Positions 10,681-55,926 of a DNA stretch of 64,000 nt are shown here, one piece after another (the first letter of the stretch is position 1; each line of letters starts with the position of its first letter). The stretch is from Candidatus Staskawiczbacteria bacterium (GTDB lineage Bacteria; Patescibacteriota; Minisyncoccia; Minisyncoccales; Staskawiczbacteraceae). The notes below the pieces were generated by a model that was not told where the DNA came from, did not search any database, and saw nothing but the letters and a program-made list of their open reading frames with translations. A program made the translations under genes and the position numbers. The DNA lies in the NCBI GenBank assembly GCA_026395295.1, contig JAPLYZ010000010.1, forward strand, positions 5,678-69,677. The letters run 5' to 3'.

Positions 10681-12429
10681 ATGAATCCAAAAGAAAAGTG
10701 GGCGTTGTTTTCGGTCTGGGACAAAACCGGCGTTGTGGACGATGCTAAGCGACTGGTGAAATTGGGCTGGAAGATTATCAGCTCCGGTGGCACAGCAAAA
10801 GTACTGGCTTCCGCAGGTGTTCCGGTCAAGGACGTTTCCGAACTGGTGGGCGGGGGAGCCATTCTTGGCCATCGGGTGGTTACGCTCTCTCGCGAAGTCC
10901 ACGCCGCTTTGCTGGCTGACGCACTGAAGCACGAAGACCTTGTCGAGCTGGTCTGCTTGGCAATTCCCTTTATTGACCTGGTGCGCTGCGATTTTTATCC
11001 TCTGCGCCAAGCTATTGCCGACCCAAATGCAAAAGTCGCTTCGGTGGTTGAACTGACTGACATCGGCGGACCCTGCATGGTGCGTTCTGGCGCCAAAGGC
11101 TTGCGCATTGTGGTTTGCCGGAAGCAAGACATGAAGCCGGTTCTGGAAGAACTGGAGGCGTGCGGTGATGTCTGCGTTGAAAACCGCCAAAGCCTTCGCG
11201 CTCGCGCCGAGTATGAGGTTGCTAAGTACGTTGCCGAATCGGCGATGTATCACGGCCAAGGCAGATTCAGGGTCATTGCAGGAGAAAAAGTTTGCCAGTT
11301 TAAGGGCGAAAATGGTCTGCAAACTCCGGCTGCTCTTTTCAGCGCTGAATCTGACGACCCGCTGGCGCTCAAGAATTTTGCGCTCATTACTGGCACTTCG
11401 CCAAGCTACAACAACTGGTGCGACTATGATCGGCTTCTGCAGACCATGACTCATCTGGCAGCAGCCTGGAAACTGAACTATGGCAAGGTTCCCTATATTG
11501 CTGTTGGAGCCAAGCATGGCAATCCATGCGGAGCCGCGATCGGCAATAGTCATCAACTTATTGTCCATGACATGGTGATTGGTGACAGTCGCGCCATCTT
11601 CGGCGGGGTTGTTATGACCAACTTTCCTGTCACAGGCTCAGTGGCTGTGGCAATGGCCGAGGCCATGACCGACAAAAAGGCGCGCTTCGATGGCGTTGTT
11701 GCTCCAAACTTCGACGCATATGCCATTCAGACCCTTTCTCGTGTGAAGGGAAAATGCCGACTCATGGTCAACCCTGCCCTCGAAGGCGAAGGTTCTGCGG
11801 TTTTGGATACTACCCCGCGGTTCCGCTATGCTCGCGGTGGATTTTTGGCTCAGCCCAACTGCACTTTCTTACTGGACTTCAACGACCCTGACATAAAGGT
11901 TTTCGGCCCGCGCAATCCGGCAGTGGAAGCTGACCTGCTAATTGCCTGGGCAATCGGCGCCACCTCAAACTCCAACACAATTACCATTGTGAAGGACGGA
12001 ATGCTCATCGGCAACGGAGTCGGTCAGCAAGATCGCATTATCGCGGCGAGGTTAGCCAGGGACCGGGCTCTCGATGCCGGCCATGGAAACCCAGTGGACC
12101 TGGTTGCTGTTGCTACAAAGGCAATTGGGGGACTATACGCTGGAAATCTGCCAGGTGTTTCTCCCAGTTTTAAGGAGGTCGCGAAAGTCGCGGTTGAAAG
12201 CGCCCTTGCTGCAATAACCAAGGACAGGCTTGAAGGCGCGGTTGCTTACAGCGACAGTTTCTTCCCATTCCCGGATGCTGCCGAGGTTTTGATTGACGCC
12301 GGTGTTAAAGCAATATTCAGCACCTCGGGAAGCATCAACGACGCGGCAATCCAGGAGCTGTGCGTGAAGCGCGGAGTTACGCTTTACCAGCTTCCGGACA
12401 CGAAAGCCCGCGGATTTTTCGGCCACTAA
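10681..12429 (+). CDS. purH: Bifunctional AICAR formyltransferase / IMP cyclohydrolase, divergent
   Basis: 582 aa. MGS-like N-terminus (ALFSVWDKTGVV, SSGGTAKVL, DIGGPCMVRSGAK). Transformylase part (AKHGNPCGAAIG, GNGVGQQDR, YSDSFFPFPD). Visibly higher G+C than the flanks. Confidence 0.85.
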   Translation: MNPKEKWALFSVWDKTGVVDDAKRLVKLGWKIISSGGTAKVLASAGVPVKDVSELVGGGAILGHRVVTLSREVHAALLADALKHEDLVELVCLAIPFIDLVRCDFYPLRQAIADPNAKVASVVELTDIGGPCMVRSGAKGLRIVVCRKQDMKPVLEELEACGDVCVENRQSLRARAEYEVAKYVAESAMYHGQGRFRVIAGEKVCQFKGENGLQTPAALFSAESDDPLALKNFALITGTSPSYNNWCDYDRLLQTMTHLAAAWKLNYGKVPYIAVGAKHGNPCGAAIGNSHQLIVHDMVIGDSRAIFGGVVMTNFPVTGSVAVAMAEAMTDKKARFDGVVAPNFDAYAIQTLSRVKGKCRLMVNPALEGEGSAVLDTTPRFRYARGGFLAQPNCTFLLDFNDPDIKVFGPRNPAVEADLLIAWAIGATSNSNTITIVKDGMLIGNGVGQQDRIIAARLARDRALDAGHGNPVDLVAVATKAIGGLYAGNLPGVSPSFKEVAKVAVESALAAITKDRLEGAVAYSDSFFPFPDAAEVLIDAGVKAIFSTSGSINDAAIQELCVKRGVTLYQLPDTKARGFFGH

Positions 12430-18690: not shown

Positions 18691-19185
18691 ATGATTTCTG
18701 AAAGGCAAGAAAAATTATTAAACTTTTTAATTAAAGAGTACATAGCCACAAATGAACCTGTTGGTTCTTTGTCGTTAAAAAAAGCAAGCGATTTAGATGT
18801 TTCAGCGGCAACAATAAGAAACGATTTGCAGGCTTTGACAGAAGCAGGGTATATTAAACAGCCTCACACGTCAGCAGGCAGAGTTCCTACAAAAAAAGCA
18901 TACAAATATATTGCCGATAAAATAACAATGTCCGAGACATTTTACGACGTTCGCGAAGTGAATGTCGTAAGAATGTCCATTGTGCGACAAATCAAAGAGG
19001 CTCATCAGCAACTTGAACAGGAAATGCAATCTTTAATGGAAATTTCAGGAATGCTGGAAATTTCTCACACAACCGAAAGCCACACTTTATTTAGGGCTTT
19101 AACAATTTTAGGACCCACAAGAGAAATTTGCGAAGACAACGAAGACATTATACAAAAATTATTAAAAGAATTAGAAAATTTTTAA
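18691..19185 (+). CDS. hrcA: Heat-inducible repressor HrcA, short form (N-terminal winged-helix only)
   Basis: 164 aa, versus about 340 typical from memory. LLNFLIKEYIATNEPVGS, ATIRNDLQALTEAGYIKQPHTSAGRVPT. A CIRCE-like operator lies just upstream. Confidence 0.75.
   Translation: MISERQEKLLNFLIKEYIATNEPVGSLSLKKASDLDVSAATIRNDLQALTEAGYIKQPHTSAGRVPTKKAYKYIADKITMSETFYDVREVNVVRMSIVRQIKEAHQQLEQEMQSLMEISGMLEISHTTESHTLFRALTILGPTREICEDNEDIIQKLLKELENF
18979..18989 (+). repeat. ATTGTGCGACA 11-mer, copy 1
   Basis: Exact copy inside hrcA (frame att-gtg-cga-caa). Confidence 0.95.
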
Positions 19186-19186
19186 C

Positions 19187-19696
19187 ATGACAGAAGAACC
19201 AAATGTAAATATTGGTAAATCCTTCGACGCGGCTCAGGATGAGTTGAAGGCGCTTCAACTCAAATCTGAAGAGTATCTAAATGGCTGGAAGCGTGAGCGA
19301 GCAGATTTTTTAAATTACAAAAAAGATGAAATGGAGCGAATTGGCCAGCTTGTAAAATATGCCAACGAGGAAATTATTTTAAAAATAATTCCAATTTTAG
19401 ATAATCTTTGCCTGGCGGCAAGCCACCCTTCGACGGGCTCAGGGCAGGCATTACTTAAAGGGGTGGAACAAATTAAAAAGCAGCTGGAAGATTTTTTACA
19501 AAAAGAGGGGATTGAGCCAATAGAAACAATCGGCAAGCCATTTGATCCTAATTTCCACGAAGTAGTCGAGGAAATTAGCCCTTCCGAAGCTTTAGCGAAG
19601 GAGGGCAAGCCCAATACTGTAGTGGCGGAAGTCCAGCGAGGCTACACAATGCACGGCCGAATCATCAGGGTCGCTAAGGTCAAGATATCAAAATAG
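19187..19696 (+). CDS. grpE: Nucleotide exchange factor GrpE
   Basis: 169 aa. WKRERADFLNYKK, IIPILDNL, FDPNFHEVV, RGYTMHGRIIRVAKV. Confidence 0.9.
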   Translation: MTEEPNVNIGKSFDAAQDELKALQLKSEEYLNGWKRERADFLNYKKDEMERIGQLVKYANEEIILKIIPILDNLCLAASHPSTGSGQALLKGVEQIKKQLEDFLQKEGIEPIETIGKPFDPNFHEVVEEISPSEALAKEGKPNTVVAEVQRGYTMHGRIIRVAKVKISK

Positions 19697-19703
19697 CGCT
19701 TGT

Positions 19704-19732
19704 CCGGATTTTTTGCGGTCGCAAAATTTCCG
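19704..19732. repeat. Palindromic unit with core TTTTTTGCGGTCGCAAAA, copy 1 (after grpE)
   Basis: CCGGATTTTTTGCG-gt-CGCAAAATTTCCGG. Confidence 0.8.
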
Positions 19733-19771
19733 GCCACACAAAAATCGCTAGTCTTATGCAAGGTAAATAAT

Positions 19772-20305
19772 ATGAATACAGAACAAAGACAAGAAATTCG
19801 CGAGGAAGAGCCAAAAGAAAAAATTACAACCTATACCGACGAGTATAAGGAAGGGGTCTTAAGATTCTATGATAAGCTAAGGAACGAGTTCAGGGATGTT
19901 GATTTAGGTCAATCGGGTCAGGGACCAAACAAAGCTAATCAAGAAATTGGAAAGAAAAGCGAGAATAGCGACTTTTGGGTGGCAACGAATGATGAAAACG
20001 AAGTTGTCGGAACTGCTGGTTTGGACGATTGCGGGAACGGAATTGGATATTTTAGAAGTTTGTATGTGGATAAAAGCTTAAGAGGAAAAGGGGTTGCAAA
20101 AGAACTTTTATCTGCCACGGTTAGTTTCGCCAAGGAAAAGAAGTATAAAGTTATTTTTGCCGCAACAATGCCCAAAAATACAGGAGTTCATAAATTTAAC
20201 ATCAAAAATGGTTTTCGGAAAATAGATGTCCCGCCGGCGAATTCTGAGAAGTTCCGCCCCGGCACAGTATTTTTTGAAATGGATTTAGGAGAAAAAAAAG
20301 AATAA
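19772..20305 (+). CDS. GNAT-family N-acetyltransferase
   Basis: Start at ATG 19772. Acetyl-CoA motif VDKSLRGKGVAKELL. Confidence 0.7.
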   Translation: MNTEQRQEIREEEPKEKITTYTDEYKEGVLRFYDKLRNEFRDVDLGQSGQGPNKANQEIGKKSENSDFWVATNDENEVVGTAGLDDCGNGIGYFRSLYVDKSLRGKGVAKELLSATVSFAKEKKYKVIFAATMPKNTGVHKFNIKNGFRKIDVPPANSEKFRPGTVFFEMDLGEKKE

Positions 20306-20480
20306 TGTTAAAAAAGATAGTGGTAAATTTTTTGACGAACGACAAAAACGCTACCACTACGCGAAATACTTTAAATACTTTCAGGTTGTCGTGTGACAAC
20401 CAAAGATAATCAAAAGCTGTTCTAAAATTTTTTAGAATAGCTGTGAGAAAAAAATTAGTGAATAATTAAAAAATAAAATT

Positions 20481-21362
20481 ATGGCGAGAATAAATTTAAA
20501 AACTGGAAAAGTCATTAAACCTCAAGAATTTAGTGGAGGGAATCCCGAACATCAACTGCAAAAATACGCAGAAGAATATTTAGGAGAACATTTCCGATGT
20601 TATTATTTAAAAAGTTTTTATCAAATACCTAATGGAGAAATTGATACCTTGGCTATCACCGAAGACGGAAATCCTTGTATTATTGAATACAAGCATAAAC
20701 AAGAGGACAGGGTTTTAAATCAAATAGTCTTTTACTATGACTGGTTAACGCAAAAGCCCACAAAATTCGAGTTTGAAAGAATTGTTAAAGAAAATCAGAT
20801 AACTAAAAGTATTGATGTTGATTGGTCAGAAATCCGTTTGATTTGCGTTGCGAAGGAATATTCTAAGTGGGACGCTAGCTTAATTAAACACTTGGATACC
20901 GACATCGAATGTTATACATATACTTATCATGAAAATGAATTAGATATTTATTTAGACCCACTCATCAATCAATTTAAAAAACAAAAAAACTACTCTGGCG
21001 AGCCAGTCAATAAGGTGGTTACGCTAGAAGACCACAGAAATAGAGCTGATAAAGAAGGAAAAGAATTTTTGGACGAATTAAGAGAAAGCGTGTTTAAAAT
21101 GGGGGATGATATTGAAGAGGGGTATACACCAGATTACATAAAATATTTTGTCAAAACTACATTTCTGGGTATACATGTGAAGAGAAAATGGCTAGTTATC
21201 CAATTAAGAGTGAACGAAAAAACTTTTAAAGATCCTAAAAAATTGGCTAAAGATATTTCAAGCAGAAAATGGACGACTACTAGAGAAATGAAAATTGATA
21301 GTATGGATAAATTAAACTACGCGATTACTTTGATAAAACAAGCGTACGAAGCCCAACATTAA
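20481..21362 (+). CDS. PD-(D/E)XK (NucS/DUF91-like) nuclease domain protein with C-terminal uncharacterised domain
   Basis: 293 aa. GEIDTLAITEDGNPCIIEYKHK fits a D...E-x-K nuclease core. Confidence 0.45.
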   Translation: MARINLKTGKVIKPQEFSGGNPEHQLQKYAEEYLGEHFRCYYLKSFYQIPNGEIDTLAITEDGNPCIIEYKHKQEDRVLNQIVFYYDWLTQKPTKFEFERIVKENQITKSIDVDWSEIRLICVAKEYSKWDASLIKHLDTDIECYTYTYHENELDIYLDPLINQFKKQKNYSGEPVNKVVTLEDHRNRADKEGKEFLDELRESVFKMGDDIEEGYTPDYIKYFVKTTFLGIHVKRKWLVIQLRVNEKTFKDPKKLAKDISSRKWTTTREMKIDSMDKLNYAITLIKQAYEAQH

Positions 21363-21426
21363 AAATAAATAAGATAATTTTATTGTGCAACATTCTGTCC
21401 CTATGCACCTATGTATAGTAACAGAT

Positions 21427-21437
21427 ATTGTGCGACA
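21427..21437 (+). repeat. ATTGTGCGACA 11-mer, copy 2
   Basis: Exact copy ending 20 nt upstream of the dnaK ATG. Forms ATTGTG-CGA-CACAAT. A 1-mismatch copy ATTGTGCAACA lies at 21382-21392. Confidence 0.95.
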
Positions 21438-21457
21438 CAATATTAAAAATAAATAAA

Positions 21458-23362
21458 ATGAGCAAGATACTTGGTATAGATTTGGGGACAACGTTCTCGG
21501 CCATGGCGGTGGTGGAGGGAGGCGAGGCGAAAATTATTGAGAATAAAGAAGGAGCGCGGACTACGCCGTCTATTGTGGCAATGTCAAAAAGCGGAGAAAG
21601 AGTTGTTGGCGTGCTTGCAAAGAGGCAGGCTGTCACAAACCCAAAAAACACAATTTATTCTGTTAAAAGACTAATTGGCAGAAAGTTTACCGACCCCGAA
21701 GTGCAAAGAGACAAAAAATTATTGCCGTATGAAATTCGCGAATCAGCTGATGGCGGAGTAGATGTTAAAATGGGCGATAAGTGGCTTAACCCGGCTGAAA
21801 TTTCGGCAATGATTTTGCAAAAATTGAAAGCTGACGCCGAAGCAAAACTTGGCGAAACAATTACCGAGGCAATTATTACCTGCCCGGCATATTTTGACGA
21901 CTCGCAGAGAAAAGCCACAAAAGTGGCAGGAGAAATTGCCGGTTTCAAAGTTGACAGAGTTATTAACGAACCAACTGCCGCGGCTTTGGCTTATGGATTG
22001 AACAAAAAGAAAGATGAAAAAATTTGCGTTTACGATTTTGGCGGAGGAACTTTTGATATTTCCATTTTGGATGTTGGAGCTGACACAGTTGAAGTAAAAG
22101 CAACCGGCGGAGACACGCATTTGGGCGGAGATGATTTTGACCAAAGGATTATGGACTGGATTGTCAAAGAATTTAAAAAAGACAATGGAGTTGACTTGTC
22201 AAAAGACATGCTGGCTTTGCAAAGAATTAAAGAATCGGCTGAAAAAGCAAAAATTGAGCTGTCTTCAAGCCTTGAGGCTCAAATTAACTTGCCATTTATT
22301 ACCTCTGACCACAATGGGCCAAAACATTTGGACTTGAAATTAACCAGGGCTAATTTGGAAAGTATGGTGCAGGATTATTTGGATAAATCAATTGAGCTGG
22401 TTAAAAAAACAATGAAAGAAGCCGGGCTTGAACCAAAAGACATAAACGAAGTCGTATTAGTTGGAGGACAGACCAGAATGCCAAAAATGATTGAAGAGGT
22501 AAAAAAATACTTTGGCAAGGAACCCAATAAAGAAGTAAACCCTGACGAGGTTGTGGCAATTGGGGCCGCTGTTCAGGGTGGAATTATGAAGGGTGAAGTC
22601 AGAGATGTTTTGTTGCTGGACGTAACGCCTTTGTCGCTGGGAATTGAAACCTTTGGCGGAGTGAACACAGTTTTAATTGCCAAAAACACAACTGTGCCAA
22701 CTGCCAAGAATCAGGTGTTTTCAACAGCCGCCGACAGCCAGACAAGTGTTGAAGTGCATGTTTTGCAGGGCGAAAGGCCAATGGCGCAAGACAACAAAAC
22801 TTTAGGAAGGTTTATTTTAGATGGAATTCCGCCAGCGCCGAGAGGTACGCCACAAGTTGAAGTTTCTTTTGACATTGACGCCAATGGAATTCTAAACGTG
22901 TCGGCAAAAGACAAAGCAACCGGCAAAACTCAGTCAATAAAAATTGAAGGCTCATCGGGGCTTTCAAAGGAAGAAATTGAGAAAATGAAAAAAGACGCGG
23001 AAATTCACGCTTCAGAGGACAAAAAGAAACAGGAAGCCATAGAAATTAAAAATTCAGCCGATGCTTTGGTTTATACCTGCGAGAAAACTCTACAAGATAA
23101 TAAGGCGCGAGAGGTTGAACCCGCCTTCGCTAAAAGCTTCGGCGAGGCAAGGGATAAAATTGCCAGCTTGAAAGATGCAGAAAAAGGTGATAATATGGAG
23201 GAAATCAAAGCAAAGACCAAAGATTTGTCGGAAACAATACAGAAAATCGGAGCAGAATTGTATAAACAGCAAAAGCCCGAAGACAAAACATCTGGCTCTA
23301 GCGAGACAAAGAAAGATGGCGGTGAACCAAAAGCAGATGAAGGGAAGTACACCGAGAAGTAA
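21458..23362 (+). CDS. dnaK: Chaperone DnaK (Hsp70)
   Basis: Start at [12 protein letters not shown]. The ORF track start at 21428 is a TTG inside the 11-mer motif. Canonical Hsp70 sequence throughout. Confidence 0.97.
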
Positions 23363-23367
23363 ACCAA

Positions 23368-23472
23368 CGCTCGGAAAATAATTTTCTGCTAACGCTCGTG
23401 TCCCGCTTCGCGGGAAACTCGCTTCGACAGGCACTTTGTGTCCTGTAATACGTTGAAAATTATTTTCCTCGC
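23368..23472 (-). repeat. MITE-like structured repeat, copy A (dnaK-dnaJ spacer)
   Basis: About 105 bp. It is the reverse complement of copies B and C. A/T-rich inverted termini GGAAAATAATTTTC/GAAAATTATTTTCC and two internal hairpins. Confidence 0.85.
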
Positions 23473-23481
23473 TTTCCTAAA

Positions 23482-24606
23482 ATGGATTACTATGAAGTCT
23501 TGGGAATTACTAAAAGTGCTTCTCAAGAAGAAATAAAAAAAGCATTTCACAAACTGGCGCACAAATATCACCCGGACAAGGGCGGAGATGAAAAGAAGTT
23601 CAAGGAAATCAATGAAGCGTACCAGGTGCTTTCAGATAGCGCAAAAAGAGCTCAATACGACCAGTATGGGCGTGTATTCGATGGCAATGAAGGATTTTCC
23701 GCCCAAGGCGGACCAGCCTCGGGCTGGAATTGGGCATGGGGCAACCCTTCAGCAAGCGCAGGACGAGGCGAGGATGGCGTTGAGTTTGATTTTGAAAATG
23801 TTGGAGAGATATTTGAAGAATTTTTTGGCGGGGGATTTGGAGGCGGAGGACGCCGATCAAATAAAAAAGATGCCAGGAAAGGGAAAGATATTCAAGTTGA
23901 TGTAGAAATTGCTTTGGAAAGAACATTAAAAGAGTCAATTGAAAAAATAAGTTTAGCAAAACAAGTTGTATGCCACAGATGCCAGGGAGTTGGAGCAGAA
24001 CCGGGCAGCAAAGTTAAGGAATGTTTTTCTTGCCGAGGAACAGGGCAGGTTCAGCAGGTCAAGAAAACAATTTTTGGTTCGTATACAACTCTGGCAACCT
24101 GCCCGGAATGCAAGGGCGAAGGCACAATTCCTGAAAAGCCATGCAATGTGTGTAAAGGCGAAGGTAGAATAAAAGGCGAAGAAACAATTGAGGTGCATAT
24201 TCCTGCCGGAATTGATACTAATCAGGTTATAAGAGTTGACGGCAAGGGCGAGGCAGGGAAAAAAGGAGCCAAAGCGGGAAATCTTTTTGCCAGAATTTCT
24301 GTTAAACAGCACCCTGTGTTTGAGAGAAGGGGAGACGATTTGTTCAGTCAGTCGGAGATTAGTTTTTCACAGGCAGCTTTGGGAGATGAAATAGAAATTA
24401 AATCATTGGAAGGCACAAACATTTTACTGGAAGTGCCCACAGGAACCGAATCGGGAAAGGTTTTAAGAATTTCGGGAAAAGGAATTCCGCATTTTGGAGG
24501 ATTTGGAAAAGGAAACCTGTACATTGAGTTGAAAATTAAAACACCAAAAAAATTATCCAAGCGCCAGAAAGAACTATTGGACCAGCTTCATCAAGAAGGT
24601 CTGTAG
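23482..24606 (+). CDS. dnaJ: Co-chaperone DnaJ
   Basis: J domain with HPD (KYHPDKGG), G/F region, four CxxCxGxG zinc-finger repeats. Confidence 0.95.
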
Positions 24607-24685: not shown

Positions 24686-24693
24686 CATTAACT

Positions 24694-24720
24694 AAAAATC
24701 CGCCAATCTGGCGGATTTTT
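24694..24720. terminator. Bidirectional terminator between tRNA-Lys and the LAGLIDADG gene
   Basis: AAAAATCCGCC-aatct-GGCGGATTTTT. Confidence 0.8.
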
Positions 24721-24725
24721 AGTTA

Positions 24726-25220
24726 CTATTTGGTTTTTGAGAAGGCCTTTGCCATTTCTAACCATTTTGGCGCTCGGGGGCGGTTTTTATATTTTGCTGA
24801 AGACTTGTGAATTTCTATTAAAGTGCACAGGTCATTTTTTTTCCAACTGGCTAAAGACTTTCCCTTATTTCTTTGGATTACCTCAACTCCTTTTGCCCAA
24901 AGTTCAAAATCTTTTTTCTTTTTGTCAGCCAGCAAATTTTTTCTGAAAAACGGCACAACCACTTCGGCAATATCGCTAATTTTTTGCACAGAGAATCTTG
25001 CCTGATCTTTGGAAACGGTAATTTCTCCGCAATCCATTTCGTTTTTTATTTTTTCCAAAATTTTAAAATCGTTTTTGGGCGAGGTAACCACAAACTGAGC
25101 TTTCCAACGGTAGTAAGTGGGGGAGTTGGTTCTTTCGTGCCGGGTGTCTTTTCTAAATTGCAAATCAAAGCAACCATCGGAATTTACTAGGTTTACTATA
25201 TTAAATTTTTCTGTTACCAT
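24726..25220 (-). CDS. Free-standing LAGLIDADG-type homing endonuclease-like protein
   Basis: 164 aa. One LAGLIDADG-like motif (NLVNSDGCF) and family-like core (ILEKIKNEMDCGEI, VVPFFRKNLLADKKKKDFELW). Confidence 0.55.
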   Translation of the reverse strand: MVTEKFNIVNLVNSDGCFDLQFRKDTRHERTNSPTYYRWKAQFVVTSPKNDFKILEKIKNEMDCGEITVSKDQARFSVQKISDIAEVVVPFFRKNLLADKKKKDFELWAKGVEVIQRNKGKSLASWKKNDLCTLIEIHKSSAKYKNRPRAPKWLEMAKAFSKTK

Positions 25221-25271
25221 AACTTTATAAAATTAGTTTTTAATTTATAGATTGATTATAGCAGATATTTA

Positions 25272-25282
25272 ATTGTGCGACA
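25272..25282 (+). repeat. ATTGTGCGACA 11-mer, copy 3
   Basis: Exact copy ending 5 nt upstream of the helicase ATG. Confidence 0.95.
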
Positions 25283-25287
25283 ACACC

Positions 25288-26601
25288 ATGAAACAAAAGG
25301 AAGCATTAGATATTCTAAAAATGGGTTACAATACTTTTTTGACAGGCCCGCCGGGAAGCGGAAAAACTTTTTTATTAAATAAATATATTGAATATCTTAG
25401 AAAAAATAATATTCCCGTTTCAATTACCGCCAGCACCGGCATTGCCGCTACCCATATGGGCGGGGTTACATTGCATTCGTGGTCTGGCCTGGGAATCAGA
25501 GAAAAGTTAGATGACTTGGAAGTAAGGCAAGTTTGCGACAAGGGATATTTAAGAAAAAGAATAAAAAACACGGGCGTTTTAATTATAGACGAGATTTCCA
25601 TGATTAAAGCTTCACAGTTTGAGGCTGTAAGCAAAATTTGCCAGTATATAAAAAGAAATATCCGACCCTTTGGCGGAATACAAGTTATTTGCTCGGGCGA
25701 TTTTTTCCAGCTGCCACCGGTGGAAAAAGAAGGCAGGGAAATAAAATTTGTTACCGAGTCAGACGTTTGGAAGCAAATGGAAATGAAAATTTGTTATTTA
25801 GACGAACAGCATAGAACAAAAGATAAAAAACTGCATAAAATTTTAAATTGCATTCGCGAAAGCAAAGCAGGGGAATCAAAAGAACTTTTGTATCAAGCGC
25901 AAAAAGTGGCAAAAGATTTAAAACGTGTTTTTACAAAACTTTACACTCACAACGTTGATGTGGACAGCATTAACTATTCTGAGCTGAACAAAATAAAAGG
26001 AAAAGAATATTATTATCAAATGGGGCTGAGAGGAAATCTTGTTGTCGCAGAGGCGTTGAAAAAAAGTTGCTTGGCGCCCGAGAAGCTAATTTTAAAAGAC
26101 GGCGCGCACGTGATGTTTATTAAAAACAATTTTGACGCAGGATATGTTAACGGAACGCAGGGGAAGATAGTTGGTTTTGGGGCGGGGGATTTGCCTATTG
26201 TCAAAACTCAAGACGGTAAAAAAATAACCGTAGCTTATGCCGACTGGACAATAGAAGAGGAAAATTTAATAGTGGCCGGAATTTCTCAAATTCCGCTAAG
26301 GTTGGCATGGGCCATTACCGTGCATAAATCACAAGGAATGAACCTTGATTCGGCCGAAATGGATCTTTCGAGATGTTTTTTAGAAGGCATGGGGTATGTT
26401 GCGCTTTCCAGATTAAGGTCATTAAAGGGTTTGCGACTGATGGGAATAAACAACCTGGCTTTTTGTGTGAATCCTCGGGCGCTGAAAATAGATAAACAAT
26501 TCAGGCTTTTTTCCAAAGAAGCCTCAGCTGAACTAAAAAAGACGCCGGCGGGCGCTGTAACCAAAAGGCAAAAACTTTTTATTAAATATTTAGGCGGCTA
26601 G
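25288..26601 (+). CDS. Pif1/RecD-family ATP-dependent DNA helicase
   Basis: Walker A GPPGSGKTF, Walker B LIIDEISM, GDFFQLPPV, AITVHKSQG, YVALSR. Start at ATG 25288. Confidence 0.85.
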   Translation: MKQKEALDILKMGYNTFLTGPPGSGKTFLLNKYIEYLRKNNIPVSITASTGIAATHMGGVTLHSWSGLGIREKLDDLEVRQVCDKGYLRKRIKNTGVLIIDEISMIKASQFEAVSKICQYIKRNIRPFGGIQVICSGDFFQLPPVEKEGREIKFVTESDVWKQMEMKICYLDEQHRTKDKKLHKILNCIRESKAGESKELLYQAQKVAKDLKRVFTKLYTHNVDVDSINYSELNKIKGKEYYYQMGLRGNLVVAEALKKSCLAPEKLILKDGAHVMFIKNNFDAGYVNGTQGKIVGFGAGDLPIVKTQDGKKITVAYADWTIEEENLIVAGISQIPLRLAWAITVHKSQGMNLDSAEMDLSRCFLEGMGYVALSRLRSLKGLRLMGINNLAFCVNPRALKIDKQFRLFSKEASAELKKTPAGAVTKRQKLFIKYLGG

Positions 26602-26616
26602 CCGTAAGGAGTTTTT

Positions 26617-26627
26617 ATTGTGCGACA
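26617..26627 (+). repeat. ATTGTGCGACA 11-mer, copy 4
   Basis: Exact copy in the 31-nt spacer between the convergent helicase and xer genes. Followed by GACAAG-N9-CTTGTC. Confidence 0.95.
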
Positions 26628-26632
26628 AGGTA

Positions 26633-27604
26633 TTATTTCTTGTCAGGATCAGAGTGGAATTGATGGTGAATGTCGCGAAGGCGTTTATTGGTTACGTGCG
26701 TGTAGATTTGAGTGGTGGCAATGTTGCTGTGGCCCAAAAACTCTTGGATGCTTCGCAGATCAACTCCCTGGTTTAACAAATCTGTGGCGTAACTGTGGCG
26801 CAGGGTATGAGGTGTTGTAAAAATTGGCACGCCTGAAAGCAGGGCGTATTTTTTTACCGTGCGCTCAATAGACCTTGGGGTAAGCCTGGCATTGGTATCG
26901 TCTTTTTTGTCGCGAAAGTTTATAAACAAGGCTTTTTGATTTGCATGTTTAATATCGTTTCTTATTTCTAAATATTTTTTGATGAAGTTTAATGCGCGTT
27001 CGGAAAAATAAACTACTCGCGGTTTTCCGCCTTTTCCAATTACGCCAAGTTCCATGTCCTTTTTATCTTTTAGATTACTAAATTGTTCAAGGTTCAACGA
27101 GGTGAGCTCAGCAATTCTAAACCCGGTTGAGAAAAAAACCTCTAAAATAGCCCTGTCGCGAGTGCTTATGTCGTCCTTGGGCTCAATGGAGGCTAAAAGC
27201 TTGCTAATTTGGTCTAAAGTAAGGAATTTAATGCTTTTTGAGCCTCTATCTGGCTTTGAGAGCGATATTTTGTCCGGGGGGATACTTTGTATGTCTTTTG
27301 CCACAAAATAGCCTAAAAAGGCCCTTAAAGCGATCAAATAGTAGTTTTGGGTGGCCTTAGATAGCAATTTTCCTGTAGCCAGACTGGGCTGTCTTGAAAG
27401 GTATAATCTATAGTCCCAAATATGCTCGGAGGTCAACTGATGGGGGAGTAAAGACGATAATTTAGCTTGGTCTAACCAATAGAAAAATTTCTGCAGATAA
27501 TTTTTATAATTCTCCTGAGTATTTTTTCTTAAACCTTTTTCAACTTCACAAAAGTCTAAAAAATCTTGCAGATGGTTTTTAATTGGTTTAGTTGAGTTTT
27601 GCAT
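26633..27604 (-). CDS. Tyrosine recombinase, XerC/XerD-like
   Basis: 323 aa. SAM-like N-domain. Catalytic region RDRAILEVFFSTGFRIAEL, HTLRHSYATDLL, LGHSNIATTQIYTHV. Confidence 0.85.
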   Translation of the reverse strand: MQNSTKPIKNHLQDFLDFCEVEKGLRKNTQENYKNYLQKFFYWLDQAKLSSLLPHQLTSEHIWDYRLYLSRQPSLATGKLLSKATQNYYLIALRAFLGYFVAKDIQSIPPDKISLSKPDRGSKSIKFLTLDQISKLLASIEPKDDISTRDRAILEVFFSTGFRIAELTSLNLEQFSNLKDKKDMELGVIGKGGKPRVVYFSERALNFIKKYLEIRNDIKHANQKALFINFRDKKDDTNARLTPRSIERTVKKYALLSGVPIFTTPHTLRHSYATDLLNQGVDLRSIQEFLGHSNIATTQIYTHVTNKRLRDIHHQFHSDPDKK

Positions 27605-27626
27605 TTTCTCCGGATTTTTAGAAGCC

Positions 27627-27674
27627 TATACTTAGTACGTCGCTTTACCTACATTTTGCGACATAGTCTGTATA
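27627..27674. promoter_or_regulatory. Large imperfect inverted repeat in the xer leader (candidate recombinase site or operator)
   Basis: Arms TATACTTAGTACGTCGC and GCGACATAGTCTGTATA, 13/17 complementary, 14-nt spacer. Overlaps the 1-mismatch motif copy ATTTTGCGACA (27653-27663). Confidence 0.4.
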
Positions 27675-27677
27675 CTA

Positions 27678-27707
27678 ATAATAGTCCACCCCTTATGCCC
27701 ATGTCAA
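27678..27707 (-). promoter_or_regulatory. Sigma-70-type promoter of the xer-like gene
   Basis: On the minus strand: TTGACA (27707-27702), 18 nt, TATTAT (27683-27678). Confidence 0.55.
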
Positions 27708-27717
27708 CGGGTAGTAC

Positions 27718-27746
27718 TAAAAAAGACGTGGTTTAGGTCGTCTTTT
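27718..27746 (-). terminator. Terminator after 27747-28109
   Basis: AAGACG-N10-CGTCTT flanked by A/T runs. Confidence 0.55.
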
Positions 27747-28109
27747 TTATGGGTTTGCGGTCTGAGGCGCAGTTGGCTGACAGGTTGTATTATTTTTTCC
27801 TGCAACTGCGTTTGCAATTCCAGAAAAATAATTTTCAATTTTTTTCCCAATGTCTTCAGAAACTTTTTGTTTTTCCTGATTAACCGCGTTTGTTATGGTC
27901 TCTCCCCCGCTTTTCACCTGTTCATCTATTTTAGGGTATATGCCAGACATAACCCAATTGGACCCTTTTGCCAAATATGACCCCACCTGGTTTGCCGCAG
28001 CTGAAATAATGGTTTTTCCTGTTGCCTGTGAATATGCCTGCTGGCTAAGAAACACCACACCAAGCAAAATAATTATCGCGACTATATAAATTATAAATTT
28101 TTTTTGCAT
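27747..28109 (-). CDS. Secreted/anchored hypothetical protein
   Basis: 120 aa with an N-terminal signal/TM segment. No recognisable motif. Confidence 0.35.
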   Translation of the reverse strand: MQKKFIIYIVAIIILLGVVFLSQQAYSQATGKTIISAAANQVGSYLAKGSNWVMSGIYPKIDEQVKSGGETITNAVNQEKQKVSEDIGKKIENYFSGIANAVAGKNNTTCQPTAPQTANP

Positions 28110-29605
28110 TATAATAATTTAATTGCTTCTTGGATGCGCTTTAATGTTTTTTCTCTGCCAAAAATAGCCGCGATTTCAAAAGGGCTTGGCGATGTTTTTT
28201 TGCCGGACAAAGCAGCCCGCAATGGCCAAAGTAAAAATCCTTTATTTTTTTCCGGGTAGCCTTTTTCTTTGTTAAACTCCCCTGCCCCACTTATCAACGC
28301 CTCCTCAATATTTTTAATTTCCCATGTTTTTAAATCAGATAAAATCCTGTCGCACAATAAAAGAGCCTCTTTTACATCTTCGTCCTGCATATCGCTCCAC
28401 TTCAGCAAGTCTTTTTCATAGCTAGGTTTGTCGTGAAAAAATAAATCTGACAACTCAACAATGTCTGATAGTTTTTTCATTCGGGTTTTAGAAACCTCAA
28501 TAATCTCCTGCAGTTTGTTTTGCGAAACCTGGCCGGCAACCAAAAGACCGGCTTCTTTTAAATAAGGCTCGCAAAGTTTTGTTAATTTTTCAATTGGTTT
28601 CTCGCGGATGTATAAACCATTTAAAAATTCTAAGCGCTGGATGTTAAAAATGGCTCCGGCTTTTTGTACTTTTTCTATTGAAAATTCTTTTGACAGTTGG
28701 GCCAAGGTAAACAATTCTTTTTCTGTTCCGGGGTTCCAGCCCAATAAAACCATAAAATTTACTAAAGCCTCGGGCAAATATCCCTGCCTGTGATAATCAG
28801 CCACTGCAACGTCTCCCTGCCGTTTAGAAAGCTTGCTTCGGTCAGCGTTTAACATCAATGGCAAGTGCGCATAGATGGGGTGATAAAAACCAAGCGCTTC
28901 CTGAAGCAATATCTGGCGCGGAGTGTTGGGCAAATGTTCCTCGCCCCTGATTACGTGGCTTATTTGCATTAAAAAATCATCAACCACAACTGCAAAATGA
29001 AACAAAGGGTTGTCCAAGCTTTTTGCTATAACAATATCGCCTAATAGGCTGGCATCAAACTCCACTTCTCCGCGAATTAAGTCAGTGAATTTTACTTTTT
29101 TATTTTGAACTCTAAATCTTATAACAGACTGTTTTCCTTCAGCTAAATTTTTCTGGACAACTTCTGGCGACAAATGGGCGCAACTGCCGTCGTATTTTGG
29201 CGCCAATCCCCTGCTCATTTGCTCTTGGCGTTTAGATTCCAATTCTTCCTCTGAACAAAAACAATAATATGCTTTGTCCTCCACCAAAAATTTTTCTAAA
29301 TAATTTTTGTAAATATTCAGCCTTTGAGATTGCTTGTACGGCCCGAAGTCTCCACCAATGTCCGGCCCCTCATCCCACTGAACCCCCAGCCATTTTAGCT
29401 GCTCAATAATTTCATCTGTCCACTTTTGTTCCGACCTCTTCACATCGGTGTCTTCAATGCGTAAAATAAATTTACCATTATTTTTTTTTGCAAAAAGGTA
29501 GTTGAACAAAGCAGTCCGGCTTCCGCCAACATGCAAGGGGCCAGTTGGAGAGGGCGCAAACCTCACCCTAACCGGCATACTTTTTTCTTTAATATCTTTT
29601 TTCAT
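28109..29605 (-). CDS. gltX: Glutamate--tRNA ligase
   Basis: HIGH-type motif SPTGPLHVGG and KMSKS-type KLSKR. The true start may be MPVRVRF at 29578. Confidence 0.95.
   Translation of the reverse strand: MKKDIKEKSMPVRVRFAPSPTGPLHVGGSRTALFNYLFAKKNNGKFILRIEDTDVKRSEQKWTDEIIEQLKWLGVQWDEGPDIGGDFGPYKQSQRLNIYKNYLEKFLVEDKAYYCFCSEEELESKRQEQMSRGLAPKYDGSCAHLSPEVVQKNLAEGKQSVIRFRVQNKKVKFTDLIRGEVEFDASLLGDIVIAKSLDNPLFHFAVVVDDFLMQISHVIRGEEHLPNTPRQILLQEALGFYHPIYAHLPLMLNADRSKLSKRQGDVAVADYHRQGYLPEALVNFMVLLGWNPGTEKELFTLAQLSKEFSIEKVQKAGAIFNIQRLEFLNGLYIREKPIEKLTKLCEPYLKEAGLLVAGQVSQNKLQEIIEVSKTRMKKLSDIVELSDLFFHDKPSYEKDLLKWSDMQDEDVKEALLLCDRILSDLKTWEIKNIEEALISGAGEFNKEKGYPEKNKGFLLWPLRAALSGKKTSPSPFEIAAIFGREKTLKRIQEAIKLL
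28348..28358 (-). repeat. ATTGTGCGACA 11-mer, copy 5
   Basis: Exact copy on the minus strand inside gltX (frame ttg-tgc-gac). Confidence 0.95.
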
Positions 29606-38217: not shown

Positions 38218-38228
38218 TGTCGCACAAT
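38218..38228 (-). repeat. ATTGTGCGACA 11-mer, copy 6
   Basis: Exact copy on the minus strand between the uppS stop and the orphan-ORF promoter. Confidence 0.95.
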
Positions 38229-45109: not shown

Positions 45110-47605
45110 TTATTTTTTGGGCGGGATGGGTTGGCTGGAAGAAATTGGAGGCTGAGCTGGCGGAATGTCCACAAAAGAACGCTGGGCAATTTCCTGCTCA
45201 ACAACATCTTTTGCCCGCGAATATTTTAACTTTGATATTTTTTTAATAGCGGCAATAATTTCCGGTTTTCCTTTTGGAGGAGGCAGTGTATTCATCTTAA
45301 ACGGCGTTGAAATTTTATTGTTTATCATCATTTTTATCAAAACCGTGAAGTTGTCTAAGTTCACCAAATCAAACCTTGAAAATCCGGGCTCAAATTGTTT
45401 TTCCAAATTTTCAGCGTCTTCAGCTCCAATGCGAAATGCGCCAATTGTGCCAACGTTGCCCAAAACCGCGTCGCGAATTTCCTGCTTTAACTGAGGCATA
45501 TATTGGTGAGCCATTATCAAATTGAGTTTATATTTTCTTGCCTCAGATAAAATTGTGGAAATTGAATCAGTTGTAAAATTTTGAAACTCGTCAATGTACA
45601 AATAAAAATCTGTTCTTTGGTCTTCTGCAATTCTTGCCCGCCTCATTGCCGCCATTTGTATTTTTGAAACTAAAATCAAACCCAGTAAAGAGCTGTTTAC
45701 CTCGCCGGTTAAACCCTTGGACAAATTTGCCAAAAAGATTTTTTTCTTATCCATTACATCTGCCAAATCAAAACCCGAGTGCGACTGACCGATGATATTT
45801 CGCATCATCTCGTTTTCAATAAACCTGCCAAGCTTTGAAACAACATAGCCCAACATGTCCGACCTGGTGGAACCTGTTGTTTGTGCCCATTCTTTTGTCC
45901 AAAAAGACCGAACAATTGGGTCAGAAACTTTTGCCATTCTTTGTTGTAAAAACGCCGGATCGGTAAACATTTTTGGAATTTCAACCAAAGTTCCCGGGTT
46001 ATCTTTATCTGCCATTAAGGCCAGCATGGCGTTTCTCATATAATGCTCAAACATTGGGCCAATAATTTCCGGCGGAAAAAGTTTCATAAATATGGCAATC
46101 ATTTCCTGAACCGCAAAATCTTTCTGTTCCGGCGAATCGTACTCTAACATGTTCAAGCCGCACGGCCTTTCAATATCCGACGGATCAAAAAGCACAACAT
46201 CATCAATCCTATCCTTTGGTATCATTGCTAAAACATGGTCAATTAATTCCCCGTGCGGGTCAACAATTGCCACGCCTTCACCATTTGCAATGTCTTGAGC
46301 TATCATACTTTCTAAAAACCAAGATTTACCAACACCGGTTTGTCCTATAATATAAAAATGCCTTCTTCTGTCTTTTCTGTCAGCAAAATAAACTTTTCTC
46401 TCTTCGTTTCTGTAAGAGACTTTTCCTATGCATATCTGCCCTTTTTCCGGCAAGTCTGCCGGCGGAGGCGATGACACAGACTTTGCGGCTTTAATATATG
46501 GGGTTTCAATGTAATGTGTAGGGAAATGATAAACGCTGGCCAATTCCTCCAAATTCAAAACATTGGCTTGTTTTTCGTTGAAATTTCTAAAACTAAAATC
46601 GTAAGCAAATTTCTGCAGTTCTTTGCCTCGAACTTCTTTAACTTCCAAATTGTTTATTGCCGATAGCGAAAACTGACTGAATGCCGAAGTTAAATGATTT
46701 AAAATTTCTTCTGCTCTGCCTTCTGACTGGGCCGATGCCACAACTCTTATGTTCACTTCAAATGGTTGTTTTTGAATTTTGCTTTGGATTGCATCGTAAC
46801 CCTTCTGGTCGATCCCCTGCTCCTTATCAACACTTTGAAACTCTATTTCTTTTCTCTTTGAGTCCATGGGTCCCCTGACGAAAAGCTCGTCTATTAACTC
46901 CATCAAGTCTCCCAATCCCCATCCATAAGCTCTTTCTACCGCAATTTTTACAGATTTTCCTTCTCTGATTTTTTTTAAGGCCTTCTCGCCTGCTTTTCTC
47001 AAGTTTAATTTAGACAACGGCCTAATTATTACCTGGACTGCCCCGCCTTCGTTAGCTGAAATTTTGCTCAAATTATTTGTTACCAATGCCAAGGGATCTG
47101 TTTCCAGTGTTTGATAGGTGCTAATTGGAAAAAGGTAGCTTTCGGAAAGCTTTAAATACGCAGCGGCGTTTGTTCCTTGCGGTTCAAAAATTGTATAATC
47201 TTGCGGAACCTTATCAACCACTGCGTTAGGATAAACACCCTGCACATATTTTTCGAAAACCGACTCCAAATATTTAGGAACTGCAACGTAAAAAGAAATG
47301 TCTGAACTTCCTATTTGAGAAGCAATTTCAAAAGCGCAACAAGGCGGAGTTTGAAACACGCTGCGTTTTTTCAAATATAAAAAGTTGGCGAAGACTTGCT
47401 CCATTTGGGCAATCATTAGTTTTTCCTCCTTTTGCTGTTCGCCTTCTTTCTTAGGAGAGTGCTGGGGCATCATCACCAAAAACAAAACCATTTCCAATCC
47501 TCCAAAGACGGAATTTTTTTCGTTTGTTTCAGCGTTCAAAACAAAAATAAAAGCCAAAACAATCAGTAAAAAAACCAAAATTAATCCGGGTATAATAATC
47601 GCCAT
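45110..47605 (-). CDS. Membrane-anchored VirD4/TraD/TraG-like (T4SS coupling-protein-like) P-loop ATPase
   Basis: 831 aa. Two N-terminal TM helices, Walker A GQTGVGKS, Walker B-like FYLYIDEFQNF, LIMAHQY. Confidence 0.6.
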   Translation of the reverse strand: MAIIIPGLILVFLLIVLAFIFVLNAETNEKNSVFGGLEMVLFLVMMPQHSPKKEGEQQKEEKLMIAQMEQVFANFLYLKKRSVFQTPPCCAFEIASQIGSSDISFYVAVPKYLESVFEKYVQGVYPNAVVDKVPQDYTIFEPQGTNAAAYLKLSESYLFPISTYQTLETDPLALVTNNLSKISANEGGAVQVIIRPLSKLNLRKAGEKALKKIREGKSVKIAVERAYGWGLGDLMELIDELFVRGPMDSKRKEIEFQSVDKEQGIDQKGYDAIQSKIQKQPFEVNIRVVASAQSEGRAEEILNHLTSAFSQFSLSAINNLEVKEVRGKELQKFAYDFSFRNFNEKQANVLNLEELASVYHFPTHYIETPYIKAAKSVSSPPPADLPEKGQICIGKVSYRNEERKVYFADRKDRRRHFYIIGQTGVGKSWFLESMIAQDIANGEGVAIVDPHGELIDHVLAMIPKDRIDDVVLFDPSDIERPCGLNMLEYDSPEQKDFAVQEMIAIFMKLFPPEIIGPMFEHYMRNAMLALMADKDNPGTLVEIPKMFTDPAFLQQRMAKVSDPIVRSFWTKEWAQTTGSTRSDMLGYVVSKLGRFIENEMMRNIIGQSHSGFDLADVMDKKKIFLANLSKGLTGEVNSSLLGLILVSKIQMAAMRRARIAEDQRTDFYLYIDEFQNFTTDSISTILSEARKYKLNLIMAHQYMPQLKQEIRDAVLGNVGTIGAFRIGAEDAENLEKQFEPGFSRFDLVNLDNFTVLIKMMINNKISTPFKMNTLPPPKGKPEIIAAIKKISKLKYSRAKDVVEQEIAQRSFVDIPPAQPPISSSQPIPPKK

Positions 47606-51290: not shown

Positions 51291-51301
51291 TGTCGCACAA
51301 T
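51291..51301 (-). repeat. ATTGTGCGACA 11-mer, copy 7
   Basis: Exact copy on the minus strand in the 18-nt ATPase-permease spacer, ending 3 nt upstream of the permease ATG. Confidence 0.95.
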
Positions 51302-55915: not shown

Positions 55916-55926
55916 TGTCGCACAAT
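55916..55926 (-). repeat. ATTGTGCGACA 11-mer, copy 8
   Basis: Exact copy on the minus strand between the purB terminator and the purC-purE promoter region (TTGACA at 55909-55904). Confidence 0.95.

Follow-up and report, generated by a model that had tools for sequence, protein, structure and literature searches.

A Xer recombinase gene and an adjoining dif-like site at the probable replication terminus of a Candidatus Staskawiczbacteria chromosome

In the present study, we analyzed a 64-kb stretch (hereafter, the window) of contig JAPLYZ010000010.1 from Candidatus Staskawiczbacteria bacterium, a tiny, uncultured member of the Patescibacteria, or Candidate Phyla Radiation (CPR). The window includes xer, a gene for a Xer-type tyrosine recombinase, with 27 kb and 36 kb of DNA on its two sides, and was compared with the loci of relatives, for which up to 10 kb of flank per side of xer was available. 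We conclude that the window very probably spans the replication terminus of the chromosome, and that the promoter of xer, a 28-bp dif-like site, and xer itself most likely form a compact chromosome-dimer-resolution module at the point where the two replichores meet. Copies of a polar 11-mer, ATTGTGCGACA, point towards this module from both sides and, judging by their distribution, we take the 11-mer to be a terminus-organizing polar signal.

Skew, gene orientation, and the 11-mer change direction at xer

The initial annotation of this DNA had described a convergence of gene orientation near 26.6 kb and had proposed that it marks the replication terminus; both claims hold. In a greedy open reading frame (ORF) call, 27 genes lie on the + strand and 2 on the - strand left of 26.6 kb, and 34 lie on the - strand and 5 on the + strand from xer rightwards. 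The + strand has a GC skew of +0.114 on the left of xer and of -0.111 on the right of the dif-like site. The cumulative G-C count, the check that had been suggested for the terminus, inflects near 27 kb, with the maximum at position 27787; all values within 15 of the maximum fall in a plateau at 27281-27952, inside which the dif-like site lies. Among related loci fetched via the protein (n = 29), nearly all have positive skew upstream of xer and negative skew downstream.

The xer gene itself helps to locate the flip. It is encoded on the - strand, yet its own + strand skew (+0.141) has the sign of the left replichore, and in 17 of 19 relatives the xer sense strand likewise goes with the skew of the downstream side. 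The flip thus lies upstream of xer, at the site, rather than at the switch of gene orientation at 26.6 kb, and the mismatch between the skew of xer and its coding strand separates replication bias from coding-strand bias. As genes and skew converge and G is enriched on the leading strand, the forks are expected to converge here as well. The flips of skew, gene orientation, and 11-mer polarity all fall at the xer module, in the window and in relatives, and those of skew and 11-mer polarity are far beyond chance.

A conserved 28-bp site between the promoter and the start codon of xer

The xer gene is preceded by a sigma-70-like promoter (27678-27707, - strand), with TTGACA at -35 (27707-27702), an 18-nt spacer, and TATTAT at -10 (27683-27678), matching the consensus at 11/12 positions, in agreement with the initial annotation. 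Both boxes are kept at the same place in relatives, and so is the order promoter-site-ORF, the site starting ~13 nt after the -10 box. Alignment of relatives reveals a conserved island upstream of xer, ATGTCGCAAAATGTAGGTAAAGCGACGT (27637-27664, - strand), and this conservation defines the dif-like site, which is 28 bp long, has an 11-6-11 layout, and reads ATGTCGCAAAA-TGTAGG-TAAAGCGACGT in the xer sense. One arm (27654-27664; TTTTGCGACAT on the + strand, reading outward) is invariant; together with base 27653 it gives ATTTTGCGACA, a 10/11 match to the polar 11-mer. The 6-bp central, or crossover, region (27648-27653; CCTACA on the + strand, TGTAGG in the xer sense), with boundaries set by alignment with the 11-6-11 layout of Escherichia coli dif and with the variants of loci L023-L025, is likewise invariant in 22/22 sequences (2.0 bits). 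The other arm (27637-27647; TAAAGCGACGT on the - strand, reading outward) varies among relatives at its outer positions (GCGACGT, GCGACAT, CCGACGT, CCGAAGT, GAGGCGT, and others). The information content per position is 1.91 bits in the first arm, 2.00 in the center, and 1.65 in the second arm, against 0.24-0.70 in the flanks. The first arm, the center, and the next 4 nt are invariant in 21 genomes, except for T/C at arm position 2 and one C>T change in L015; these 21 relatives (L001-L021) had been found via the Xer protein and not via the site.

Two palindromes had previously been put forward as candidates for a dif-like site. The upstream one, with arms at 27627-27643 and 27658-27674 (13/17 complementary, 14-nt spacer) and a one-mismatch copy of the polar 11-mer inside it (27653-27663), is present as described. 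By number alone, both are within chance: there are 3 palindromes of the 17/13, spacer-14 class in the window versus 1.2 in shuffles (85 if spacers of 0-20 nt are allowed) and 31 of the 6/6, spacer-9 class versus 21. The upstream palindrome is significant because it is conserved across species, and what relatives keep of it is the 28-bp element. Its spacer had been considered longer than a canonical central region; however, the 14 nt parse as 4+6+4, so that the site has the ordinary 11-6-11 layout and the caveat disappears. The 3' palindrome, GACAAG-N9-CTTGTC (26624-26644), also exists, but it is not conserved in relatives and we reject it as a dif site. Its right half consists of the C-terminal codons of xer (DKK-stop) and its left half of the end of a polar 11-mer copy; relatives keep the codons, with the 11-mer at a variable distance from them, indicating a chance overlap.

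The dif-like site is a single-copy element in the window and in each of 142 loci. Its arms are symmetric at 7/11 positions, and those of variants in distant relatives at up to 9/11. Substitutions in the variable arm are not accompanied by compensating changes in the other arm, which argues for a protein site rather than an RNA hairpin; the pattern would fit a recombinase site with one strongly and one weakly constrained arm. An RNA element in the xer leader was considered and rejected, given that, besides three tRNAs, the window yields no Rfam match and that no compensating changes accompany the substitutions in the arm.

A scan of metagenome contigs with the 19-nt core of the site returned at least 120 contigs, and among the matches listed xer starts 14-276 nt downstream of the core in 110 of 120. 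As for the other 10 listed, 7 are cut by the contig end, L086 has xer ~480 nt away, L131 has a second, divergent xer, and L076 has the site inverted. L076 (~5500-5800) has retained the asymmetric site, albeit in the opposite orientation with respect to xer and the same promoter; in L131 (~500-1495), two xer genes diverge from the site region. The only match to the core in a viral collection lies inside a coding sequence with no xer nearby and was dismissed as a chance 19-mer.

Relatives with more divergent recombinases carry other versions of the site. Where Xer is 58% identical, GGTTCGCATAA-TTATAG-TTAAGCG(A/C)AC(C) occupies the same position, with arms symmetric at 9/11 positions, and the left arm, GGTTCGCATAA, is identical to the XerC arm of Erwinia dif reported by Carnoy and Roten (PMC2731167). 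A further relative carries ACTTCGTATAA-TAATAG-TTTATAGAAGT, with a resemblance to the left arm of dif from firmicutes. In L018, L019, L023, and L025, 90-130 extra bases separate the site from the xer ATG; they consist of two long hairpins built from inverted copies of dif arms (e.g., GGTAAACCGTCG...CGACGGTTTACC, followed by CCAAGATTTTACAACAT...ATGTCGTAAGAATCTTGG), and might be a structured leader, a small element inserted here, or sites in folded DNA such as those that CTX phage uses. In L022, no dif-like site is recognizable in the 579 nt upstream of xer; 5 kb downstream of the gene (6490-6530) lies a near-perfect palindrome of two back-to-back half-site-like words without a spacer (AACATATTTTGTGCGATCGCATAAAATATGTT).

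The recombinase

The xer gene (26633-27604, - strand) encodes a protein of 323 aa, from ATG to TAA, identified as a Xer-type tyrosine recombinase by Pfam, NCBIfam, and PDB comparisons and by active-site alignment; the ORF had been recognized as Xer-like in the initial annotation, and its Pfam and NCBIfam matches confirm this. The product consists of a Phage_integrase domain (PF00589) and a SAM-like N-terminal domain. The best NCBIfam models over the full length are XerD (228.6 bits), NF001399, a generic tyrosine-recombinase subfamily model (226.5), XerC (221.2), and XerA (187.4). All four scores fall short of the curated cut-offs, the equivalog values being 329.6 for XerD, 335.15 for XerC, and 220 for XerA (NF040815), so that the protein is not assigned to any of these families, and the same is true of XerS, the model of which matches the C-terminal half only (122.1 vs. 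a cut-off of 267). The closest PDB structures are Pyrococcus abyssi XerA (4a8e) and E. coli XerD (1a0p), with E ~1e-35, followed by XerH (5jjv) with E = 7e-14. The catalytic residues R-K-H-R-H-Y align with those of E. coli XerD, as do the segments TGFRIAEL, GKGGKPR, HTLRHSYAT, and LGHSNIATTQIYTH with the XerD active-site motifs.

Relatives with as little as 50% protein identity retain the gene order mur ligase-ftsW-murG-gltX-(small ORF)-xer, and the side of xer opposite the mur-gltX array is variable. Across 21 genome loci with the main type of site, Xer orthologues are 72-91% identical and xer always lies downstream of mur-ftsW-murG-gltX. Whether the gene clusters with Xer proteins or with phage integrases had been posed as a decisive question; the best models (XerD, XerC, and XerA), the closest structures (XerA and XerD), and the housekeeping synteny all indicate, at the level of sequence comparison, a housekeeping Xer and not a prophage integrase. 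There is no Xer paralogue in the window or in the flanks of most relatives. Together with the nearly equal XerC and XerD scores and the near-palindromic sites of distant relatives, this suggests, within the window and the flanks, a single-recombinase system.

Locus L024 (2700-4470) has lost the 5' 90% of the usual xer to a cassette that consists of a promoter, a dif of another sequence (GGTTCGCATAATTATAGTTAAGCGCACC), an xer with 58% identity, and a small ORF. Of the old gene, the last 30 codons are left; they encode a protein segment 100% identical to Xer of the window, and are followed by the polar motif. The xer-dif module is thus swappable as a unit.

Such a replacement could be taken to mean that xer and its site stem from an integrated mobile element (a prophage remnant, a tRNA-Lys island, or an integron-like platform) and that the switch of orientation is incidental. 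The name of the Pfam family, Phage_integrase, would agree with this, and so would the presence, 2 kb away, of a tRNA-Lys gene, along with an adjoining LAGLIDADG gene and a Pif1-like helicase gene found only in this genome. We consider such an origin largely refuted and barely credible. The region contains no phage genes and the best models are Xer families; the identity and invariable position of xer over the 21 main-type loci are at odds with an element that comes and goes; and the flips of skew and of the polar motif coincide with xer in >100 independent contigs. The tRNA-Lys island, in particular, was rejected: the 3' end of the tRNA has no direct repeat flanking the region, att-like direct repeats are missing, the synteny is that of conserved housekeeping genes, and xer is universal in the clade.

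A polar 11-mer converging on the site

The window contains 8 exact and 2 one-mismatch copies of ATTGTGCGACA (shuffles: mean 1.05, maximum 5), all on the + strand up to 27663 and all on the - strand from 28348, consistent with the reversal of polarity noted initially. The innermost left copy (26617-26627) lies 6 nt beyond the xer stop codon, and is followed outward by a copy overlapping the core promoter of the LAGLIDADG gene (25272-25282; the - strand here reads TGTCGCACAAT-11 nt-TATAAT), one upstream of dnaK (21427-21437, with a one-mismatch copy at 21382-21392), and one inside an hrcA-like gene (18979-18989). On the right, the innermost copy (28348-28358) is inside the 3' part of gltX, and the remaining ones are intergenic, located 7 nt upstream of a TTGACA box (38218-38228), 3 nt before an ATG (51291-51301), and 6 nt upstream of another TTGACA box (55916-55926). 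The heat-shock cluster at 18691-24606, comprising the hrcA-like gene, the genes after it, dnaK, and dnaJ, carries three of the copies, of which one is the copy in the hrcA-like gene and the other two, spaced 45 nt apart, precede dnaK.

In an unbiased scan for 8- to 11-mers oriented towards xer, the motif ranks first at k = 9-11, with 71 occurrences on the leading versus 2 on the lagging strand (349 kb from relatives). Its general form is ATTRTGCGACA, with a purine at position 4, preceded by four T-rich bases and followed by A. In 131 non-identical loci (1.18 Mb), 293 copies are concordant and 11 discordant with this polarity (233:7 for ATTGTGCGACA and 60:4 for ATTATGCGACA), and ATTTTGCGACA is almost confined to the dif arm itself. 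About three quarters of the copies are intergenic. Their density is 1.3/kb at 250-750 nt upstream of the site, 3.5/kb just past the xer stop codon, and ~0.1/kb beyond 4 kb. Within ~1.3 kb of dif, the motif is 10-30 times denser than at greater distances. What the innermost pair encloses is, in most genomes, exactly the site plus xer, and on the upstream side of the site relatives have a copy at a distance of 220-670 nt. Replichore polarity is maintained by the copies that lie between xer and the LAGLIDADG gene, although both genes run the opposite way. Apart from its 10/11 match to the invariant dif arm, the motif has a parallel in two distant relatives, L026 and L029, where extra copies match the different dif arm of these loci over 12 nt.

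Two simpler explanations of the 11-mer were rejected. It is not a promoter or operator element of fixed position, as the distance to the downstream ATG or -35 box ranges from 3 to ~100 nt, the LAGLIDADG promoter being the exception. Strict replichore polarity argues against a DNA uptake sequence; to our knowledge, neither uptake signal sequences (USS) nor DNA uptake sequences (DUS) are replichore-polar.

The orientation of the motif invites comparison with the FtsK-orienting polar sequences (KOPS), which, like the 11-mer, are polar leading-strand motifs that converge on dif. FtsK would load on ATTRTGCGACA, move towards dif, and activate Xer. The motif lies on the leading strand with >95% skew, points to dif from both sides, and becomes denser towards it, and its distal density of ~1 per 10-15 kb is comparable to that of E. 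coli KOPS, 1 per 13 kb (PMC5357621). Nevertheless, KOPS and SpoIIIE recognition sequences (SRS) are degenerate 7- to 8-mers found mostly in genes, whereas the motif here is an exact 11-mer with a T-rich flank, ~75% intergenic, and, unlike E. coli KOPS (GGGNAGGG), it is related to a dif arm. The pile-up of 10-30-fold within 1.3 kb of dif is far sharper than the KOPS gradient, and the only ORF of the FtsK/HerA superfamily in the window is VirD4/TraD-like. We therefore regard a KOPS-like role as possible but somewhat unlikely. The ORF in question (45110-47605, - strand) encodes an 831-aa ATPase that, with weak scores, is most like VirD4/TraD and not FtsK; no FtsK gene was found in the window.

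The other conspicuous partner of the 11-mer is the LAGLIDADG gene (24726-25220, - strand), a free-standing, single-domain gene of 164 aa on the lagging strand, with its promoter at 25221-25282. It is found near xer throughout the clade, in ~700 protein clusters with 55-90% identity, as a single-copy, vertically inherited, and clade-confined gene; residues 17-43, the predicted DNA-contact segment, are invariant, and the acidic residue of the LAGLIDADG motif is kept in most members. In 44 of 47 distinct lineages, the core promoter of the gene is overlapped by the polar 11-mer in antisense orientation, which in 27 of these lineages lies exactly 11 nt from the -10 box. The gene looks domesticated rather than selfish, and its product is a candidate reader of the 11-mer, or else the gene may be regulated by that reader.

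If the LAGLIDADG protein were to bind the 11-mer as a polar barrier to replication forks, the terminus would contain a third, independently evolved fork trap enclosing dif. The layout has much of what characterizes Tus-Ter and RTP-Ter, namely, two opposed groups of long exact sites that flank the terminus, are densest there, and have an innermost pair that encloses dif. In addition, both tus and rtp are autoregulated via a ter site in the promoter (PMC10331603), and the gene with such a promoter site would here be the LAGLIDADG gene, the distribution and invariant DNA-contact segment of which suit this role. Set against these likenesses, the protein is not homologous to either Tus or RTP, the sites are more numerous per kb, and copies at 24-28 kb from dif are more numerous than a fork trap needs. 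Binding of the LAGLIDADG protein to the motif is itself putative, and the protein, with its acidic residue kept in most members, may have nuclease activity. LAGLIDADG homodimers of the I-CreI type have targets of ~22 bp, and the symmetric part of the motif (TTGT-GCG-ACAA) is shorter. Finally, a fork trap leaves the 10/11 match to the dif arm unexplained, and all in all we find it quite unlikely.

Neighboring genes and other features

Just upstream of the xer promoter lies an A/T-flanked hairpin, AAAAAAGACGT-N8-TCGTCTTTTTT (27719-27749; arms 10/11 complementary), which looks like a putative terminator of the orf120/gltX transcript; several relatives have similar gacg...cgtc hairpins. A perfect 11-bp inverted repeat, TAAAAATCCGC-N7-GCGGATTTTTA (24693-24721), between the tRNA-Lys gene and the end of the LAGLIDADG gene, likewise looks like a bidirectional terminator.

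Between the LAGLIDADG gene and xer, the window has a gene for a Pif1-like SF1B helicase (25273-26601, + strand), 31 bp separating its stop codon from that of xer. The helicase gene is absent at this position in all related loci, pointing to its recent insertion on the side of the terminus that varies. Purine-biosynthesis genes stand out by their GC content, 48-50% versus ~39% elsewhere in the window; these are a purH-like gene (10681-12429), a gene for SAICAR synthetase/AIR carboxylase (54453-55793), and a gene for a purB-type lyase (56021-57526), and they may have been acquired horizontally. Only two genes on the left side lie on the lagging strand, one of them a member of the ornithine cyclodeaminase family (9536-10513).

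Discussion

The dif call is solid and, in principle, unsurprising. A number of observations nonetheless weigh against the proposed module. As to the recombinase, Xer scores below every NCBIfam equivalog cut-off, and the replacement of the module as a cassette in L024 implies some mobility. As to the terminus, the skew evidence is local (27 + 36 kb here, up to 10 kb per flank in relatives), though replicated in many genomes. As to the site, its identity to canonical dif is modest (15/28 with E. coli and 14/28 with Bacillus subtilis), an XerD-type TTATGTTAAAT arm is missing, and the two arms lack mutual complementarity in their inner 4 nt, whereas the inner part of canonical dif is the most conserved and symmetric one. 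A scan with the canonical dif sequences of E. coli, B. subtilis, Staphylococcus aureus, actinobacteria, Haemophilus, and Vibrio (at least 18/28 matches) found nothing near xer; with only 15/28 positions identical to E. coli dif, the site was bound to be missed, and a canonical-sequence scan is unsuited to this clade. As to the 11-mer, polar copies consistently have R where the dif arm has T, a difference by which the reader or readers may tell the two apart. Furthermore, beyond the neighborhood of xer and the LAGLIDADG gene, the polarity of the 11-mer with respect to replication cannot be separated from that with respect to transcription, since nearly every other gene lies on the leading strand; of the lagging-strand coding sequence in the data set, the two genes account for nearly all.

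Conservation within a 5' leader might also reflect regulation only; the 28-bp element would then be a mere operator or leader element for transcription of xer, with the true dimer-resolution site located elsewhere or non-existent. A position between the -10 box and the ATG is typical of operators, and the modest similarity to canonical dif would be expected; also, among 150 loci, none has an element inserted between duplicated sites. On the other hand, the layout of the element, 11-6-11, is that of core sites for tyrosine recombinases, its versions in distant relatives carry a canonical XerC-type arm, and it lies exactly where skew and the polar motif flip. Retention of the inverted site in L076 would be unexpected for a strand-specific leader RNA element. 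Moreover, to be an operator does not preclude recombination, given that in XerS/difSL the operator and the recombination site are the same DNA (PMC1914069). For these reasons, we deem a purely regulatory element highly improbable and favor the dimer-resolution module.

In the module so conceived, Xer would bind both arms and pair sister dif sites after replication, and strand exchange across the 6-bp center, TGTAGG, would turn chromosome dimers into monomers. With the site in the transcribed leader just downstream of the -10 box, Xer bound to it would probably also repress transcription of xer. An element inserted at dif would separate xer from its promoter and thereby silence the gene. Autoregulation and protection against insertions have both been proposed for XerS/difSL (PMC1914069).

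It has been previously shown that, in XerS/difSL and XerH/difH, a single recombinase is genetically linked to dif at the terminus (PMC1914069, PMC2731167, PMC5241119). The module described here resembles XerS/difSL in having a single recombinase with the site directly upstream of its ORF, both forming one module at the terminus. The authors of that study speculated that the site lies between promoter and ORF, allowing autoregulation and insertion protection (PMC1914069), whereas a conserved predicted promoter upstream of the site is visible here. The recombinases differ in length (323 vs. 356 aa), in the score with the XerS model (122 bits vs. a cut-off of 267), and in phylum, ours being from CPR; the sites differ as well, with 28 bp and a 6-bp center here and 31 bp and an 11-bp center in difSL (PMC5357621). 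On sequence grounds, the module would thus appear to work like XerS/difSL and yet to belong to no named family, failing the XerS, XerA, XerC, and XerD tests alike. With XerH/difH of Helicobacter and Campylobacter it shares a single recombinase linked to an asymmetric dif at the terminus; however, XerH is a weaker relative (5jjv, E = 7e-14), and the difH arms, AGTTATGAAAA and AAAAGTTTGA, are unrelated in sequence.

Archaeal XerA/dif likewise combines a single Xer with a 28-bp, 11-6-11 site, and XerA (4a8e) is among the two best structural matches. Archaea also have short polar sequences (ASPS) skewed towards dif (PMC2958812, PMC5357621), although these are 4-mers and not exact 11-mers, and the XerA model gives 187 bits against a cut-off of 220; archaeal dif is, moreover, often not 180 degrees from oriC (PMC5357621). 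The E. coli XerCD/dif system has a 28-bp, 11-6-11 site at the skew flip as well, and CGCAAAATGTA in the site agrees with CGCATAATGTA of E. coli dif at 10/11 positions, as read by eye. In contrast to E. coli, there is a single undifferentiated Xer, with about equal XerC and XerD scores, the XerD-type arm is missing, and the gene adjoins dif. Xer-related simple tyrosine recombinases from candidate phyla have been grouped as the 'Cand' subgroup by Smyshlyaev et al. 2021 (PMC8138268), and the passages of that paper devoted to the subgroup describe no recombination site, chromosomal position, or polar motif.

As for the 11-mer, Xer itself is, by analogy with B. subtilis, its most economical reader. 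Two papers, citing Karaboja et al. 2021, describe that XerD of B. subtilis unloads SMC by binding to XDS sites in the surroundings of the terminus, and that XDS are Xer-binding sequences other than dif, scattered in the terminus region, at which no recombination occurs (PMC10945525, PMC11894783). Xer of Staskawiczbacteria might in the same way bind isolated half-sites, that is, the converging 11-mer copies, around the terminus. Compared with XDS as portrayed there, the 11-mer is similarly a near copy of a dif arm and concentrated around dif, its binding by Xer being putative; it differs in its strict replichore polarity and in its reach of at least 28 kb from dif, in a genome of <1 Mb, a size estimated from related contigs of 0.74-0.84 Mb. 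Xer as the reader would explain both the sequence relation to the dif arm and the clustering, and the polarity too if unloading were orientation-dependent. We know of no description of strict replichore polarity together with a reach of at least 28 kb for XDS.

Literature searches yielded no description of dif, of Xer function, or of polar terminus motifs in the Candidate Phyla Radiation, and we are aware of no earlier account of chromosome dimer resolution or terminus organization in this group. The locus provides a concrete, testable system, with one recombinase, a 28-bp site that can be synthesized, and a promoter-site-gene layout. That a conserved promoter is predicted upstream of the site lends support to an arrangement hitherto only speculated for XerS/difSL. 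For genome assembly, the module and its converging 11-mers offer a practical landmark by which the terminus can be recognized on contigs from metagenomes.

What a specialist would not have predicted is a polar 11-mer that resembles a half-site and is linked to the LAGLIDADG gene. An exact, long, half-site-like word with >95% polarity and a sharp pile-up at dif fits poorly into the categories of KOPS, Ter, and XDS. Should the 11-mer prove Ter-like, it would represent a fork trap derived from a domesticated homing endonuclease, confining termination to the 1.7 kb that hold dif; should Xer read the half-sites, they would be a strictly polar, replichore-wide version of XDS, which would also be new, albeit less radical. 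The 11-mer could reveal by what means a minimal genome, using very few parts, links termination with chromosome unlinking and perhaps with SMC or FtsK traffic.

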